Both the position numbers and the translations under genes were made by a program. The notes beneath the pieces were generated by a model that did no database searches, was not told where the DNA came from, and saw nothing but the letters and a program-made list of their open reading frames with translations. Positions 5,270 to 24,805 of a stretch of 37,609 nt of DNA are shown here, piece after piece (position 1 is the stretch's first letter; each line of letters starts with the position of its first letter). This DNA comes from a virus. Taxonomy: Duplodnaviria > Caudoviricetes. The stretch lies in IMG/VR virus record IMGVR_UViG_3300048850_000019, positions 1 to 37,609 of that record; one strand, written 5' to 3'.

Positions 5270-5872
5270 TCAATCCACATACTGGAGATCAAGGGAAGCC
5301 ATCGCGGCCGGCGATGAAGCTGTGTCGCGCATCAACTGCGCCATGCAGCCGGCGCAAGCGGTGAAGCCTTGCTGCGAATATTTCAGCAGGCGCCGCAGGG
5401 TTGCGACGGGATAGGTGACCTTGTGGATCGCCAGCTTGCGCCGTCCGAGATCCCACAGCGCCGTCGGCGTCGTGACCAGATCGTCACCATCAAGGCAGAA
5501 CTGCGTGATGGTGTAATCGAAGCTGTCGATCACCTCCTCGGCAGTCCCGTAGAAGCGGAACCTAATCGCCTGAACGTCGATCGGTAGGCTCGACCCTTCG
5601 ATGGTCCCCCGATAGTGCTTATGGTGCTCAGTCTCGCGGATCAGGTTCATGGTGGCTGGAAGCTTCCGCTCCCAATCCTCCAACTGCGCCTCGTCACGGA
5701 AGAAGAAATCGAAGTCGCTATCCAGAGCGTGCTTGATCAGGGTTCGCCGAACGGCACCGCCTGCAATCCAAGCGCCGTTCTGCACCTTAGAAAGAACTGC
5801 ATCCAAAGCAGTCTTGTTGCAGTCGGAGCGCTCGCAGAACTCAGCGAAGTTCAATCGGATCGTGTTCATCAT
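5270..5872 (-). CDS. Minimal class-II (CCA-adding/poly(A) polymerase-like) nucleotidyltransferase
   Basis: WIAGGAVRR..DSDFDFFF (GG..DxD), IDVQ, IDSFDYTITQ, TLRRLLKY. Confidence 0.75.
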   Translation of the reverse strand: MMNTIRLNFAEFCERSDCNKTALDAVLSKVQNGAWIAGGAVRRTLIKHALDSDFDFFFRDEAQLEDWERKLPATMNLIRETEHHKHYRGTIEGSSLPIDVQAIRFRFYGTAEEVIDSFDYTITQFCLDGDDLVTTPTALWDLGRRKLAIHKVTYPVATLRRLLKYSQQGFTACAGCMAQLMRDTASSPAAMASLDLQYVD

Positions 5873-18060: not shown

Positions 18061-18230
18061 CCAGCCAAGAGCCATCCGAAGATATGGTGCGGCACGTCTC
18101 CAAGGCCGTGCAATCCGAGTGCAGCCGGTGGCCAGATCACCTTCCTCAGCAGCTCAACCCTGTTCTAGTTGAGGAAATCGCAAAGCGCTGCATTACGGCA
18201 GTTCGGTTCTACGAGGGGAGCAAGCGATGA
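18057..18230 (+). CDS. Hypothetical protein
   Basis: MTSQEPSEDMV, coupled both ends. Confidence 0.55.
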   Translation: MTSQEPSEDMVRHVSKAVQSECSRWPDHLPQQLNPVLVEEIAKRCITAVRFYEGSKR

Positions 18231-18796
18231 AGCCTTACCTCAGTGCCGACAAGTTCTGGTACGTGATCCGCACCAACATCAAGGGCGAAGACAAGGCCAT
18301 GCGCAACCTCAGCATGGCTGGGTACGAGGTCTATTACCCGCGCAAGCGCATCGAGATCAAACACAAGCGCACCAACGTTTACAGCGTCAAGGAACAGCCG
18401 CTGATGATGCGCTACCTGTTCGTAGCCCAACCTGAGCGAAACGCAGACTGGTATACTTTGCGCGCCTGTGAGGGTGTGGAAGGCGTGCTTGGCATCGACG
18501 GGCCGATGCGCGTGCCGTTTCGGGTCGTGAGCCAAATCTACGATGCCGAGTTCGATATGCAGTTCGATGATACCCGAGCCGCTCGCATCCACCGCAAGGA
18601 AGAGGCCAAGACCAAGAAGGAAACAACGGCGATGAAATTCCAGCCCGGCCTGCTTGTCCACGCCGGCCAAGGCCCCTTCGATCATTACGGACATGTGCAG
18701 GGCGTGACGAATAAGGGAACCGTCCAGGTCCTTTTCACCATGTTCGGTTCGATGATGACTGTGGAATTCCAGCCCGAGTATCTTGCGGTAGCCTGA
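18227..18796 (+). CDS. NusG-family transcription antitermination factor (lambda Q position)
   Basis: NGN: WYVIRT..EDKA..L..GYEVYYP..PLMMRYLFV..GVEGVLG; KOW: FQPGLLV..GPF..VQVLFTMFG. Confidence 0.9.
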   Translation: MKPYLSADKFWYVIRTNIKGEDKAMRNLSMAGYEVYYPRKRIEIKHKRTNVYSVKEQPLMMRYLFVAQPERNADWYTLRACEGVEGVLGIDGPMRVPFRVVSQIYDAEFDMQFDDTRAARIHRKEEAKTKKETTAMKFQPGLLVHAGQGPFDHYGHVQGVTNKGTVQVLFTMFGSMMTVEFQPEYLAVA

Positions 18797-18802
18797 TACC
18801 TC

Positions 18803-18831
18803 TTGAACTTTGCGGCTGGATGGGCCATTAT
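18803..18831 (+). promoter_or_regulatory. Putative late promoter (PR'-like)
   Basis: TTGAAC-N17-CATTAT just after NusG-like stop. Confidence 0.55.
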
Positions 18832-18988
18832 CCATCTCGGATGATTTGGTGTTCAGATGCGGACCTACATCTGTAGGGAATACTCGCCGGCCAAACCCAG
18901 CTTCCGCACCCTGCGTTGAGGCTCATGGATGTTTATCGCCATTTTCGCCAGCGCTGATAGCGCGGCAACAAGAATGCGAGGTCTCCAA

Positions 18989-19075
18989 GTGGGCGAGGTT
19001 CTGGGAGAGATCATTCTGGCTGCTATCGTTGTTGCGGTAGTATCAGATTGGGTCTTCATGGCGTTCGGGTACTAA
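18989..19075 (+). CDS. Small hydrophobic peptide (alternative in-frame ATG 18929)
   Basis: GEVLGEIILAAIVVAVVSDWVFMAFGY; GAGGT upstream of GTG. Confidence 0.4.
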   Translation: MGEVLGEIILAAIVVAVVSDWVFMAFGY

Positions 19076-19116
19076 CAATCCCGTGGAGCGTGTACGTATT
19101 GTATTCTGGTAAGATA

Positions 19117-19207
19117 ATGCGAGACCGAGTGTGCGGTGCTGCCCTGGGATAGCAGCGGCGTTCTCAACCGCACACGTTCAAGTGGCCCAGCAGGGTCTCG
19201 CATACCA
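19117..19207 (+). ncRNA. Putative structured RNA 1, closed by 10-bp stem followed by ACCA
   Basis: ATGCGAGACC/GGTCTCGCAT, GTGTGCGGT/ACCGCACAC, GCTGC/GCAGC, loop CTGGG complementary to CCCAG. Confidence 0.6.
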
Positions 19208-19208
19208 A

Positions 19209-19304
19209 TCAGGACGGCGGCGTTGCCGAGCGGACGAACCTCGATTGATCTGAGGACCCCGCGTCGAAAGCTGGTGGTTGCGTCCCAGCCCGTTCCTGAG
19301 CCCA
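19209..19304 (+). ncRNA. Putative cloverleaf-like RNA 2 ending GCCCA
   Basis: TCAGGACGG/CCG(T)TCCTGA closing stem with three internal arms. Confidence 0.5.
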
Positions 19305-19320
19305 TTTCGGAGCTTCCCCC

Positions 19321-19746
19321 ATGCACCTCACCATAGACCAAGAGCGCATGTCGGACTTCTTTCTGAAGCACCACATCCGCGGCCTGCCTCGTGATGTCGT
19401 GGTCCACGAGCTGGGCGCCGATCATGGCGACCCGCACGACCATCCCTTCGCGTTCAATAGCTTCGTGGCAGTTGGCGGCTACACGGAAGAAGTGTTCGAC
19501 ATCGCGACCGGCGAAAGCCGTTTCGTTCGCCACGACACCTTCGACAGCTTCCGCATTGAGGCGGGTCACGTTCACCGCGTGGTGCAGGTCGATCCCGAGA
19601 CGGTTACCTTCATCATGCCGCACGGTCACGAGCGCAAGTCCGGGTTCTACACCTGGCGCGACGGCCAAGCTTACCATCGCTTCCACGATCAGCCCGACTT
19701 CACGCCCATCAAGGCTGCAGGGCAGGACGAGAACAGGGCGGCATGA
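19321..19746 (+). CDS. Cupin-fold (His-ligated metal) protein
   Basis: PHDHPF..S..GGYTEE...HVHRV. Confidence 0.75.
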   Translation: MHLTIDQERMSDFFLKHHIRGLPRDVVVHELGADHGDPHDHPFAFNSFVAVGGYTEEVFDIATGESRFVRHDTFDSFRIEAGHVHRVVQVDPETVTFIMPHGHERKSGFYTWRDGQAYHRFHDQPDFTPIKAAGQDENRAA

Positions 19747-20114
19747 GCGGCCACCTGATCGTCATCGCAGGACCAGCAAACACCGGCAAGATGCCGTTGG
19801 CTCGCGACCTTATGGAGCGTAACCCCCAACTGGTCTGCGTCCACCGCGATACGATCAGAGACAGCTTGGTCGCCAAGGTAGACGAAGGGGTAATCACCCG
19901 CATCATGGGCGACACGGCCCGCCAGCTTATCCGCGCGGGCTACCCCGTCGTTGCCGTTGCATGGAACATGGAACAAGGCGATCGCCTCATGTGGGAGTGG
20001 ATCGCCGCCGATGCTGGTGTTCCTGTGCTCTGGCTGGATGTGCGGCATCCGAACGTGGAAGCAATGATCCCGCCGATGCCAGATGCAAACCACCAGTTGC
20101 ATAAAGCCGCATAA
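19743..20114 (+). CDS. P-loop kinase, polynucleotide-kinase (AAA_33)-like
   Basis: LIVIAGPANTGKM (Walker A variant), HRDTIRDSL (RDxxR). Confidence 0.7.
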   Translation: MSGHLIVIAGPANTGKMPLARDLMERNPQLVCVHRDTIRDSLVAKVDEGVITRIMGDTARQLIRAGYPVVAVAWNMEQGDRLMWEWIAADAGVPVLWLDVRHPNVEAMIPPMPDANHQLHKAA

Positions 20115-20156
20115 GGGTGACCTCATCCACGGGGTTTATACAACCGTGAGGCGAGA

Positions 20157-20489
20157 ATGCCGGTAAGACCACCGCTTCACCGCCCCTCAGGACAGCGCAC
20201 CAAGCGGGAAGCTAACCGCGATTACGACAAGAAGCGCACAACCGAACAGGCATGGCGCCGTTGGTATTGGACATCTGCGTGGCGCAAGATCGCAAAGGCG
20301 CAGCTTACTCAGCACCCACTATGTGCCGAATGCGAGAAGAAGGGCCGGGTAGTCGCAGCAACCCTTTGCGACCACGTAGAGCCGCATCGTGGTGATCCCG
20401 GTCTCTTCTGGCATGGCGAGCGACAAAGCCTCTGTGTGACCTGCCATTCCAGCGCCAAGCAGCGTGAGGAGGCCGTGGGGGTGGGGTGA
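20157..20489 (+). CDS. Terminase-associated HNH endonuclease
   Basis: HPLCAEC..ATLCDHVEPHRGD..QSLCVTCHS; directly before terS. Confidence 0.9.
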   Translation: MPVRPPLHRPSGQRTKREANRDYDKKRTTEQAWRRWYWTSAWRKIAKAQLTQHPLCAECEKKGRVVAATLCDHVEPHRGDPGLFWHGERQSLCVTCHSSAKQREEAVGVG

Positions 20490-20545
20490 AAACTCTGGAG
20501 CTCTCTCCATGAGCACCGGTGGCCAAATGAAAAACTTATGCGTGC
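20477..20545. other. Probable cos region
   Basis: Gap between HNH and terS with G-run, GAGCTC and CACCGGTG palindromes; position typical of HK97-like cos phages; exact cut unknown. Confidence 0.5.
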
Positions 20546-20561
20546 ATAATTGGAGGGTAAA

Positions 20562-21026
20562 ATGCCCGCTGGTCGCCCTCGCAAACCTACGCACCTGAAA
20601 GTGGTCTCTGGCACGGCGCAGAAATGCCGCCTCAACCCAGATGAACCGAACGCCACGAAGGGCACCCCGCAGGCTCCAAACTGGTTGAGCAAGCGCGCCA
20701 CGGAGCTGTTTTACGAGACATGCGCCTCGATGGAAGCGATGGGAACGCTGAGCCTGGAGTGGGGCAACGTCATCGCTGACTACGCCTCGTGCGTCGAGGA
20801 AGTCGAGATCACCACCGGCATCATCGAAGACATCGGCAGGACCTACACCACAACCACAGCGACAGGCGACACGATGTTCCGCCCGCGTCCCGAGGTCGCC
20901 ATGCGGTCGGACGCGATGAAGCGGGCACAGTCCTTGCGTGCTGAACTTGGACTCGGACCGGCGGCGAAATCACGGGTCGGTGCCTCCAAAAAGATCGAGG
21001 CAAACCCGTTCGCGGCCCTTGGCTGA
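20562..21026 (+). CDS. terS: Terminase small subunit (P27 family)
   Basis: MPAGRPRKPTHLKVVSGT..APNWLS..ELGLGPAAKSRV; GGAGGG RBS. Confidence 0.92.
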   Translation: MPAGRPRKPTHLKVVSGTAQKCRLNPDEPNATKGTPQAPNWLSKRATELFYETCASMEAMGTLSLEWGNVIADYASCVEEVEITTGIIEDIGRTYTTTTATGDTMFRPRPEVAMRSDAMKRAQSLRAELGLGPAAKSRVGASKKIEANPFAALG

Positions 21027-21045: not shown

Positions 21046-22725
21046 ATGAAGCATCCGCACGTCGAGAAGGCGAACCGCTACGCGCGTGACGTGGTTGCCG
21101 GCAAGATCATCGCTTGCAAATGGGTGCGTCTGGCGTGCCAGCGCCACCTAGACGAATTGGCAAAGCAGAAGGACAAGAGCTTCCCCTATCGGTTCGACCC
21201 GGCCAAGGCTGAGAAGGTCTGCCAGTTCATCGAGCTTCTGCCTCACTCGAAAGGCGAATGGGCGCGCAAAGCCGAGACGATCAAGCTGGAGCCGTGGCAG
21301 TGCTTCAAGACGGCTGCGATCTTCGGCTGGGTGCGCAAGCGTGACGGGCTGCGTCGCTTCCGGCGCGTGCTGATCCTGGAGCCGCGCAAGAACGCGAAGT
21401 CCACATGGGCGGCCGGCGTCGGGCTCTACATGCTCACGGCAGACGGGGAACACGGCGCAGAGGTTTATTCCGGGGCCACCACGGAACGACAAGCATGGGA
21501 GGTGTTCGGTCCGGCCCGCTTGATGGCGCAGCGAACGCCCGCTCTGCAGTCTGCCTTCGGCCTGTCGGTCAATGCGCAGAACCTGCACATTCTCGGCAAC
21601 GGGTCGAAGTTCGAGCCGGTGATCGGCAAGCCTGGTGACGGTTCGTCGCCGACATGCGCGATCATTGACGAATACCACGAGCACGACACTGACGTGCAGG
21701 TGGACACGATGGAAACGGGCATGGGCGCCCGCGAGCAGCCCTTGCTTTTGATCATCACCACGGCCGGCGACAATCTGGCAGGGCCGTGTTTCGCGGCCAT
21801 GGAAGACGCGCAGAAGGTTCTTGAAGGGCTGGTCGAGAACGACGAGCTGTTTGCTCTGATCTATACCGTCGATCCCGAGGACGATTGGACCTCTGAAGCG
21901 GCATTGCAAAAGGCCAATCCGAACCTGGACGTGTCGGTGAAGGGCGAGTTCCTTCGGGCGCGCCAGCGGGACGCGATCAACAACCCACGCAAGGTCGGCA
22001 TCTTCAAGACCAAGCACCTCAATCTGTGGGTTCAGGCGAGGGATGCTTACTTCAACATCCAGCGCTGGAACGAGAGCGCGGATCCGAGCCTGAAGATCGA
22101 AGACTTTGTCGGGCAACCGTGCCGCATCGGCGTGGACTTGGCATCCACCATCGACATCGCGGCGGTTGAGATCACGTTCAGACACGGCGATGGTTTCGCT
22201 CGCTTCGGTCGCTACTATCTGCCGGAAGCGACAATCGAGCAGGGCGAGAACGAACACTATCGGGGCTGGCAGAAAGCCGGGTGGATCACCCAGACCGATG
22301 GCGACATGATCGACTATGTGACGATCCGCGATGATCTGCTGAAGGTCGTGGCTGATTACCAAGTCGAGGAAGTCGCCTTCGACCCCCACCAGGCGATGAT
22401 GATGATGTCGGAGCTTTCGCAAGAAGGTGTGCCGACGATTGAGGTTCGTCCGCTGGTGCTGAACTTCTCGCCGGCAATGAAGCAGATGGACGGGCTGATC
22501 CGGTCGCGGAAGATCGCGCACAACGGCGATCCCGTTTTCACATGGATGCTGTCCAACGTGGTCGCGAAAGCCGACGCGAAAGACAACGTCTACCCCCGCA
22601 AGAACCGGCCTGAAAACAAGATTGACGGCCCGGTTGCGCACATGATGGCGCAGGCGCGGTGGTTGGCGGCTGAGGAGGTCGGAATGAACTGGTCTGACAT
22701 CTTCGCAAACGTCGTGAGCGCTTAA
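21046..22725 (+). CDS. terL: Terminase large subunit
   Basis: LEPWQ, PRKNAKS, IIDEYH, GVDLA, KIDGPVA. Confidence 0.97.
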   Translation: MKHPHVEKANRYARDVVAGKIIACKWVRLACQRHLDELAKQKDKSFPYRFDPAKAEKVCQFIELLPHSKGEWARKAETIKLEPWQCFKTAAIFGWVRKRDGLRRFRRVLILEPRKNAKSTWAAGVGLYMLTADGEHGAEVYSGATTERQAWEVFGPARLMAQRTPALQSAFGLSVNAQNLHILGNGSKFEPVIGKPGDGSSPTCAIIDEYHEHDTDVQVDTMETGMGAREQPLLLIITTAGDNLAGPCFAAMEDAQKVLEGLVENDELFALIYTVDPEDDWTSEAALQKANPNLDVSVKGEFLRARQRDAINNPRKVGIFKTKHLNLWVQARDAYFNIQRWNESADPSLKIEDFVGQPCRIGVDLASTIDIAAVEITFRHGDGFARFGRYYLPEATIEQGENEHYRGWQKAGWITQTDGDMIDYVTIRDDLLKVVADYQVEEVAFDPHQAMMMMSELSQEGVPTIEVRPLVLNFSPAMKQMDGLIRSRKIAHNGDPVFTWMLSNVVAKADAKDNVYPRKNRPENKIDGPVAHMMAQARWLAAEEVGMNWSDIFANVVSA

Positions 22726-23945: not shown

Positions 23946-24805
23946 GCCTTCGCCCGCTTCCAGACCTTCGTGCGCCGGAGGCCGTTCGGTGTTCAACCGT
24001 GCTTTCCGATCGTGCTGTCAAGGCATGGTCTCCGATTGAACCTCCGAAGGCCTTTGCCGCCGATGGCTCTGACGTGATCAGCATTCTTGATCCCATCGGC
24101 TACGACTTCTGGACCGATGAAGGCGTGACAGCCAAGCGCATCGGCGCCGCGCTGCGCAACATCGGTGCCAAACCAGTCACGGTTCAGATCAACAGCCCAG
24201 GCGGCGACTTCTTTGAGGGCGTCACCATCTACAATCAGCTGCGCCAGCATCCCGCGAAGGTTACGGTTCAGATCCTTGGCATCGCCGCGTCGGCCGCTTC
24301 CGTCATTGCAATGGCCGGCGACGAGATCCAGATCGCGAAGCTCGGCTTCATGATGATCCACAACACGCAGTGGGTGGCATCAGGCGATCGTCACGCCATG
24401 AAAGAAACCCACGACATCATGGCCGTCTTTGACCAGGCGGCTGCCGAGCTTTACGCCGAGCGCGCCGAGGAAGATGTCGCCGCGATCGCCGCGATGCTGG
24501 ATGCCGAAACATGGCTTGCGGGCACCGCTGCGGTTGAGCGCGGCTTCGCAGATGCCGTGATCGATTTTGAAGCGACCGAGGCCGGCGCGCGCAATGAAGC
24601 GCCCGCCCTCTACCGACTTGAAGCTGCGTTGACTGCCGGCCGGCCTCTGCCGCGTTCCGAGCGCCGCAAGCTGATGAAAGAACTCTCCGAGGGCAAGCCG
24701 GGCGCTGCTTTCGGAACTGCCATGCCGGGCGCTGGCGAAGCCGCTGTCGAGGACAGCACTCCCCTGACACTCGCACTGGCGCGATTGAAACTCGCGCGGG
24801 CGTAA
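23942..24805 (+). CDS. ClpP-like head maturation protease
   Basis: INSPGGD, IAASAASVIAMAGD, MMIHN, AETWL..AVERGFAD. Confidence 0.95.
   Translation: MSLRPLPDLRAPEAVRCSTVLSDRAVKAWSPIEPPKAFAADGSDVISILDPIGYDFWTDEGVTAKRIGAALRNIGAKPVTVQINSPGGDFFEGVTIYNQLRQHPAKVTVQILGIAASAASVIAMAGDEIQIAKLGFMMIHNTQWVASGDRHAMKETHDIMAVFDQAAAELYAERAEEDVAAIAAMLDAETWLAGTAAVERGFADAVIDFEATEAGARNEAPALYRLEAALTAGRPLPRSERRKLMKELSEGKPGAAFGTAMPGAGEAAVEDSTPLTLALARLKLARA

Follow-up and report, generated by a model that had tools for sequence, protein, structure and literature searches.

Two predicted structured RNAs of different kinds in the late leader of a lambda-like soil phage

Introduction

What kind of RNA is encoded between the NusG-paralogue gene and the late operon of a lambda-like soil phage? 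The question is raised by a 37.6-kb virus record, the whole of which (37,609 nt) we refer to as the window, in which a 524-nt gap separates the NusG-paralogue gene (18227-18796) from the late operon. A sequence-only reading had placed in this gap two tandem, CCA-ended, tRNA-like RNAs, here called RNA1 and RNA2, and had suggested that they are processed and then act as decoys for tRNA-targeting defences or as regulators of late expression. RNase P cuts substrates in which a stem is followed by NCCA, and C4 and CI RNAs are cut by this enzyme. We find that RNA1 and RNA2 are two different kinds of RNA.

Results

The late leader and its genes

Relatives of the NusG paralogue come from the Rhizobiales, those named being from Phyllobacterium, Ochrobactrum/Brucella, Mesorhizobium and Rhizobium. 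The leader and the start of the late operon contain the following features.

18227..18796, + strand: NusG-paralogue gene, probable late antiterminator (Pfam NusG, E=1e-13; PHROG transcription antiterminator)
18803..18831, + strand: predicted late promoter, TTGAAC-17-CATTAT (found with a loose pattern; absent from a stricter promoter scan)
18842..18890, + strand: conserved promoter-proximal motif, TGATTTG..GCGGACC..GGGAATACTCGCCGG (121 IMG/VR stretches; alignment of 31)
18989..19075, + strand: 28-codon hydrophobic ORF (from translation), an inserted cassette between two AATGCGAG repeats (18973-18980 and 19116-19123)
19117..19207, + strand: RNA1, with homologues in L556, L557 and L558; tail ACCA
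19209..19304, + strand: RNA2, a probable divergent member of the frame family described below (weak score plus bridging homologues); tail GCCCA
19321..19746, + strand: cupin-like (cysteine dioxygenase-like) gene directly 3′ of RNA2 (PHROG 4786, E=2.7e-11), counted with the late operon
19743..21026, + strand: AAA_33 kinase-like gene, HNH gene and terminase small subunit, the start of the late operon

The late-leader setting proposed for the two RNAs was borne out, and the slot is one in which relatives hold real tRNAs. ARAGORN found a tRNA in 37 of 118 unique related leaders (tRNA-Met in 35 of those 37), and one leader (L160) contains a skipping-rope RNA, so the slot can be regarded as a hotspot for non-coding RNAs; an intact tRNA-shaped frame is present in just 4 of the 118. 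With the loose pattern, 97 of 117 related leaders proved to have a promoter-like site 5′ of their copy of the conserved motif. For the motif itself, RNAalifold supported no consensus structure in the 31-sequence alignment, and neither an Rfam match nor a direct description in a literature search was found; it is a candidate loading or pause site for the phage NusG antiterminator. The 28-codon ORF is missing from a relative (L006) at the matching junction. The sole RNA run found for the locus (run X2) yielded a 155-nt soil RNA contig corresponding to 18922-19076, which covers this ORF, ends upstream of both RNAs and says nothing either way about them.

The cupin-like gene was not found adjoining homologues of RNA1 or RNA2. 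At L006 1669-1749 the cupin gene has lost its core, with GACTTC direct repeats bounding the deletion, and in the same relative another gene replaces nusG behind common upstream sequence. Elsewhere in the window, a nucleotidyltransferase gene (5270-5872, − strand) shows weak likeness to the head domain of poly(A) polymerase/CCA enzymes; none of 5 phage records that carry the frame was found to have it.

RNA1 is a conserved pseudoknotted motif

RNA1 has the following parts, all on the + strand.

19117-19126/19194-19203: closing stem P1, its 5′ strand (19117..19126) being an exchangeable frame
19129-19136/19168-19175: stem P2
19138-19141/19153-19156: hairpin P3
19144-19148/19186-19190: pseudoknot
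19178-19185: conserved TCAAGYGG, just 5′ of the pseudoknot strand

Every stem, loop and coordinate given by the sequence-only reading for RNA1 and RNA2 is present in the sequence, and ViennaRNA folds both as it claimed. Greater stability than shuffled sequence was found for RNA1 (z=−2.66; 4 of 200 shuffles equally stable) and not for RNA2 (z=−0.31). When 2502 windows of 91 nt were sampled, 1.5% were as stable as RNA1. Perfect 10-bp stems with a span of 40-130 nt are not rare (3 in the window versus a mean of 6.5 in Markov controls); such a stem followed by NCCA is expected 0.12 times in these controls.

A search of 401 genomes with the RNA1 interior gave two matches, both real, and through these a further homologue was reached in Rhizobium phage RHph_Y1_10 (L558, E=2e-7). 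P2 and P3 are present in all four copies, as are the pairing of a loop with a strand 3′ of P2 and the letters TCAAGYGG ahead of this strand, and two sets of unpaired letters, GGG.TAGCAGC and TCAAGYGG, are invariant across the four phages. Over the 17 pairs of P2, P3 and the pseudoknot (n=4), 98.5% of cells are paired and three pairs have changed on both sides, one of them a pseudoknot pair: the CTGGG/CCCAG pairing has become CCGGG/CCCGG in L557, a compensatory change. P1 is out of register in the alignment; read by eye, it consists of four different sequences, each of them paired. When the alignment was compared with 500 shuffles, 7 reached the observed covariation score and 32 the pair count; across five measures, 7 to 32 shuffles reached the observed value in four and 91 in the fifth. 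Thus, compensatory changes among homologues, which the sequence-only reading made a test of its claims, were found for RNA1, with its pseudoknot among the covarying elements, as they were for RNA2, and the covariation support for RNA1 appears real but thin because only four sequences are available.

RNA1 was considered as a tRNA mimic, and this assignment was rejected for lack of both a cloverleaf and a T-stem. The GTTCAAGT that had been described as T-loop-like is closed by no T-stem, and the conserved part of this region is TCAAGYGG. That neither element is a canonical tRNA was confirmed: ARAGORN and Rfam gave no match, and neither RNA1 nor RNA2 contains an anticodon arm with a 7-nt loop or a TTCRANY loop in a 5-bp T-stem. 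In Rfam 15 nothing was found even at E≤10 between 18790 and 19400.

A candidate fifth copy of RNA1 lies just 3′ of a tRNA-shaped frame in L440 (E=0.004); this candidate aside, the RNA1 model found no clear further copy in 279 loci and none in 241 genomes, and BLASTN of RNA1 or the RNA1-RNA2 pair against cultured phages and plasmids gave no useful match. Our literature search found no published description of the RNA1 motif or of the frame family; the supplement of PMC5737381, which lay outside the search, may treat related motifs. The idea that the inner GG/CC stem of RNA1 is a nested module of the frame family was dropped because coding controls contain more stems of this type (61 vs 18). We conclude from the comparative evidence that RNA1 is predicted to be an uncatalogued, conserved pseudoknotted motif and not a cloverleaf.

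A family of tRNA-shaped phage RNAs

The frame family was collected by using the 3′ arm of the frame as an exact pattern, which gave about 330 IMG/VR stretches, of which 120 were fetched. After removal of duplicates, 97 were parsed with a D-like arm and 18 did not fit the expression (several with longer or variant loops); the counted set comprises the 87 elements with a closing stem of at least 6 bp. Each member has an acceptor-like stem, which covaries across the family, a D-like arm, a T-like arm, and an insert of 27-177 nt that differs in nearly every phage (the inserts of the 87 elements fall into 82 clusters). For acceptor pairs 3-8 the paired fraction is 94%, compared with 50% (maximum 55%) in 1000 partner shuffles, and changes on both sides were seen in 11 of 18 pairs, including all five D-stem pairs, in the 38 short-insert elements on which this count was taken (0 of 500 shuffles). 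The invariance of the T arm is built in by the search pattern, and frame variants with other T-like loops exist. Unlike the fixed acceptor of tRNAs, the acceptor stems range from 6 to 20 bp.

Several signals indicate that the family lies on the transcribed strand. G-U pairs outnumber A-C juxtapositions (20 vs 8), a promoter-like site is present just 5′ of the frame in 8 of 87 members compared with 0-2 in four controls, and neighboring or nested tRNAs are on the strand of the frame in 11 of 12 cases. The inserts are overall no more stable than shuffles (median z −0.4) and are enriched in GNRA tetraloops (22 vs 5); the enrichment of AGCCA and AATCC does not exceed the family-wise maximum. Some inserts hold pieces of tRNAs, and that of L421 is a whole tRNA-like gene. 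Nested in the frame of L143/L421 and of Pan3 (L497 2360-2537) are tRNA-like genes, complete or partial, whose anticodon arms are broken, and L411, L449 and L451 carry a 35-50 nt insertion in the D-like loop besides that at the anticodon position.

The exact T-arm word was found in 0 of 401 cellular genomes of the order, and the frame family was not found there. No constant gene neighbor was identified among 97 flanking ORFs scanned; the flanking genes vary. Cultured phages with the frame are Caulobacter phage DMCA, Komagataeibacter phages phiKX1/2, and Pan3. In DMCA (L495 967-2536) the frame is ∼100 nt 3′ of an annotated transposase gene and adjoins an integrase, outside a late leader.

RNA2 is a probable divergent variant of the frame

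RNA2 has the following parts, all on the + strand.

19209-19217/19290-19299: acceptor-like stem
19218-19228: shortened D-like hairpin, CGGC-GTT-GCCG
19229-19268: insert
19270-19274/19285-19289: T-like arm, GCTGG/CCAGC with a 10-nt loop

A family model built without RNA2 returned RNA2 as its top match in the window with the correct ends, at a weak score (10.1 bits, E=0.65), and membership in the family draws on this score together with bridging homologues. One of these, L545, is an RNA2 orthologue located 3′ of a nusG gene that scores 18.5 bits (E=9e-4) with the family model; it contains the RNA2 interior at 89% identity within a wholly different closing stem, and combines the T-like stem of the family itself with the GCCCA tail of RNA2. 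Conversely, the RNA2 closing stem occurs with full arms in three related leaders with the constant frame (L454, L316 and L321).

RNA2 agrees with the family in that its closing stem contains inner GG/CC and stacks on a T-like stem of 5 bp with an A before it (GCTGG/CCAGC versus GCCGG/CCGGC in the family). A pattern for this feature, designed after seeing RNA2, matched a single site in the window and another single site among 478,550 control bases. RNA2 lacks the 5-bp D-like stem with a GAWGGA loop and the TATCAAGC T-like loop, and its shortened D-like arm recurs in L260 (where the T arm is intact), L536 and L545, so it is a variant and not a core member. We conclude that RNA2 is a predicted conserved, divergent variant of the phage tRNA-shaped frame family. 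The description of both elements as tRNA-like therefore stands only for RNA2, which is tRNA-shaped by descent. Because it is without an anticodon arm, RNA2 cannot decode, and since it has lost the D-loop and T-loop letters of the family, any binding would rest on the stem stack and the insert.

The CCA ends, which had been taken as a defining mark, are exact in RNA1 (ACCA) and kept only in part elsewhere. The tails of RNA1 and its three homologues are ACCA (2), AAACCA (1) and without CCA (1). In the frame family, exact NCCA follows 3 of 87 members, and CCA within 12 nt is found in 16 of 87 compared with 7-16 in controls. Among 31 hand-picked leader modules, 4 have exact NCCA and 13 have CCA within 0-2 nt.

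Exchange of stems, interiors and cassettes

Exchange is evident at three levels: inserts, whole frames, and closing stems versus interiors. L390 and L432 have 60-nt flanks that are 97-98% identical, and their inserts are at background identity (0.51 vs a median of 0.47). L386 and L476 have the frame alone in common, in unrelated contexts. The RNA1 closing stem encloses unrelated interiors in L536, L006 and L500, and the RNA1 interior sits in three other closing stems in its homologues. In L536, both window stems are present in the same order around unrelated interiors, with a CAAA linker and a compensatory replacement of one A-T pair by G-C within the RNA1 closing stem; in L006, both surround another RNA and a 39-codon ORF. 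The simplest cause of these arrangements, and a likely one, is recombination across short constant ends (15-35 nt).

The search with the single NusG sequence found no locus. The IMG/VR junction patterns matched almost entirely by chance, with both flanking words in 1 of 119 stretches and 2 real matches in 75, these being one phage twice. A metagenome pattern gave seven stretches: two repeats of L139, one reverse-strand relative of the L006 stem module and four chance matches.

Other modules were also seen in these leaders. L006 (1420-1512) and L500 (reverse strand) have a common interior of the ATGCGAG stem, GCAGAGG..GAACCTGCCGCCCCCTAAGTCTG, which forms a separate small RNA family. A third module type with a TTTGC..GCAAA closing stem, a GCCCA tail and related interiors occurs in L135, L141, L151, L155 and L157, and another common module, AGATTCTCGGAG..GCAGAGTAG..AATACC, in L148, L150, L386 and L536.

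Comparison with known RNAs

The nearest described RNA to the frame family is RNA2 of phage T5 (NC_005859 32959-33083, T5s06), which lies among tRNAs and is annotated as a ‘tRNA-like stable RNA with unknown functions’; T5 RNA1 and T4 rnaC are also among the closest known. Like the family, T5 RNA2 has a closing stem of ∼8 bp, a CG linker, a 5-bp D-like stem with a GATGG-type loop, a long insert in place of the anticodon arm and, after an A, a T-like arm of 5 bp that stacks on the closing stem, and it has no encoded CCA. The T-loops differ, being a canonical TTCGAAT in T5 RNA2 and the 8-nt TATCAAGC in the family, and RNA2 of the window differs from T5 RNA2 in its 10-nt T-like loop and truncated D-like arm. 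The likeness is one of layout, as T5 RNA2 scores a non-significant 8.4 bits (E=1.4) with the family model.

The letters of the two family arms resemble those of the D-arm and T-arm of class II tRNA-Leu (Phyllobacterium L505-L509), although the first arm is about equally like the reverse complement of a tRNA T-arm. Unlike class II tRNA-Leu, the family has no anticodon arm, a variable acceptor length, usually no CCA, and A at position 73 in just 34 of 87 members. The skipping-rope RNA (RF02924) has a layout similar to that of the frame, with a closing stem, a 2-nt linker, a 5-bp arm, a variable middle and a stacked 5-bp arm, but its conserved loops differ, and neither RNA2 nor any of 20 family loci matched it. 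In its published description, this RNA is tied to terminators and nearby protein genes (Weinberg 2017, PMC5737381).

P1 C4 and P4 CI resemble RNA1 in having a long closing stem and inner hairpins, and the inner domain of RNA1 resembles part of the P1 C4 layout, a hairpin followed by a YTSTCAA-like linker. In contrast to C4/CI, RNA1 contains a pseudoknot, and RNA1 and RNA2 have no Rfam match and no target pair and are located in a late leader instead of an immunity region.

Discussion

We conclude that the two elements are, as far as comparison of sequences can tell, real, conserved, modular RNAs of a known but unexplained kind, with an uncatalogued pseudoknot motif in addition. Their folds are conserved, their position and strand are established, and stems, interiors and cassettes occur in mix-and-match combinations. 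Our best reading, a tentative one given somewhat less than even confidence, is that the locus is an array of exchangeable stem-closed RNA cassettes on the late transcript, which are likely released by the tRNA-processing enzymes of the host and likely serve as protein decoys. Transcription of RNA1 and RNA2 together would start at the 18803 promoter and be controlled by the NusG paralogue, which we consider very likely. RNase P would then cut on the 5′ side of the RNA1 stem plus NCCA and of the RNA2 tRNA-like stack, with 3′ trimming to follow; release as discrete RNAs in this way is reasonably probable. The released RNAs, stable and without a decoding role, may bind host proteins, probably components of defence; a decoy or anti-defence function, suggested by analogy, is possible and falls a little short of an even chance. 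Stems, interiors and cassettes would be exchanged by recombination; the window phage encodes an exonuclease and NinB/Orf.

The analogy is with phage tRNAs, which are shown to be counter-defences in two reports (PMC11555353, PMC10802454). In one of them, changes to the anticodon or stem-loop of a phage tRNA-Tyr abolished protection (PMC11555353), so this case needs a working tRNA, not a passive decoy, and therefore weighs against a passive-decoy reading. Other points against our best reading are the inconstant CCA, the 6-20 bp stems, the lack of a constant neighbor gene and inserts no stabler than shuffles. A broader proposal, speculative and rather unlikely as it stands, is that temperate phages of alphaproteobacteria keep a combinatorial late-leader library of small RNAs in which stems, tRNA-like arms and cargo are shuffled independently of one another, each released RNA sequestering or misleading a different host RNA-sensing or RNA-cutting defence, with RNA1 as a new pseudoknotted class.

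Action in cis is an alternative that we consider unlikely. Here the elements would be processing or punctuation signals, 5′ stabilizers or translation controls, and the released pieces would have no job. RNA2 ends 16 nt before the start of the cupin-like gene, the RNA1 homologues of L556 and L558 lie ∼20-30 nt 5′ of a start codon, and the frame lies between terS and terL in L383 and L428, all of which fit such a role. However, the downstream gene is different every time, the 8 of 87 members with a promoter-like site are directly behind their own promoter, some members are in tandem with other RNA modules, and a cis signal needs no different insert in each phage.

It is quite unlikely that RNA1 acts as a small ribozyme, such as one that cuts itself and so liberates the neighboring modules, or as an RNA that binds a ligand. 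Its compact nested pseudoknot, the unpaired letters invariant in four phages and the candidate copy just after the L440 frame are consistent with this idea, but neither RNA1 nor its homologues match an Rfam ribozyme or riboswitch, and the CCA at or near the 3′ end in three of four copies suits host processing.

We also regard as decidedly unlikely that the elements are neutral or selfish hitch-hikers, retained in a leader that tolerates insertions, with paired ends that slow decay and recombination that shuffles them. The strong compensatory change in the frame family, the compensatory RNA1 pseudoknot pair and the 89% identity of the RNA2 interior across different stems argue against this explanation, even though the slot also holds a 39-codon ORF in L006, few leaders (4 of 118) contain an intact frame and RNA2 is without the family loop letters.

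It is improbable that the frames carry antisense guides, similar to C4/CI, against phage or host mRNAs. The inserts are hypervariable and largely unstructured, the inner domain of RNA1 is partly C4-like in layout, and RNA2 has a 14-nt complement in terL (22441-22454). This complement is unremarkable over nine tests because words of at least 14 nt occur in 9 of 300 random windows, and the longest own-genome words of seven family inserts (10-11 nt) are no longer than those in foreign genomes, so that targeting of the phage's own genome by inserts is not above chance. The C4-like linker is the least conserved part of RNA1, and the C4/CI-type role suggested for the two RNAs found neither an Rfam C4 match nor a convincing a/b target pair in the phage's own genome.

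The proposed two-state switch, in which the RNA1 loop pairs with either its own 3′ strand or a 7-nt complement in RNA2 to control late expression, is very improbable, as the joint ensemble gives the RNA1-RNA2 cross-pairing a probability of 0.0, RNA2 uses its CCCAG as the 3′ strand of the T-like stem, the orthologue L545 has GAACCGG in place of GTCCCAG and no RNA1 in the preceding 700 nt, and no RNA2 comes directly after any of the three RNA1 homologues.

The annotations of T5 and T4 still offer no explanation for their stable ‘tRNA-like RNAs of unknown function’, whose layout is matched here in temperate alphaproteobacterial phages; RNA1 adds an uncatalogued pseudoknot motif. The locus and its relatives provide natural swap pairs with near-identical flanks and cultured carriers (DMCA, phiKX1/2 and RHph_Y1_10), so that the function of frame versus cargo, and the target, become testable. 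An engineered tRNA scaffold stabilizes recombinant RNA, and a natural carrier of small RNAs would parallel it.

A last comparison is with the Y RNAs YrlA and YrlB (RF02553), which, according to PMC4201824, are tandem, phage-borne non-coding RNAs with a tRNA-like domain, as here. Unlike in YrlA/YrlB, it is the two ends of the RNA that make up the acceptor stem here; moreover, the GNCGAAN0-1G motif of YrlA is found in neither 5′ stem, RNA1 and RNA2 have no Rfam match to it, and no member of the Ro60 family is encoded among 46 window ORFs scanned. Directly 5′ of the RNA1 homologue in RHph_Y1_10 there is a Y-RNA-like stem with a site resembling that of Ro60; it scores 34.8 bits against a gathering score of 69, thus falling short of it, and could possibly be a Ro60 decoy. 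This stem (L558 1425-1487; RHph_Y1_10 about 24473-24535) is a miniature that has the letters of the Ro60 site and no tRNA-like domain.
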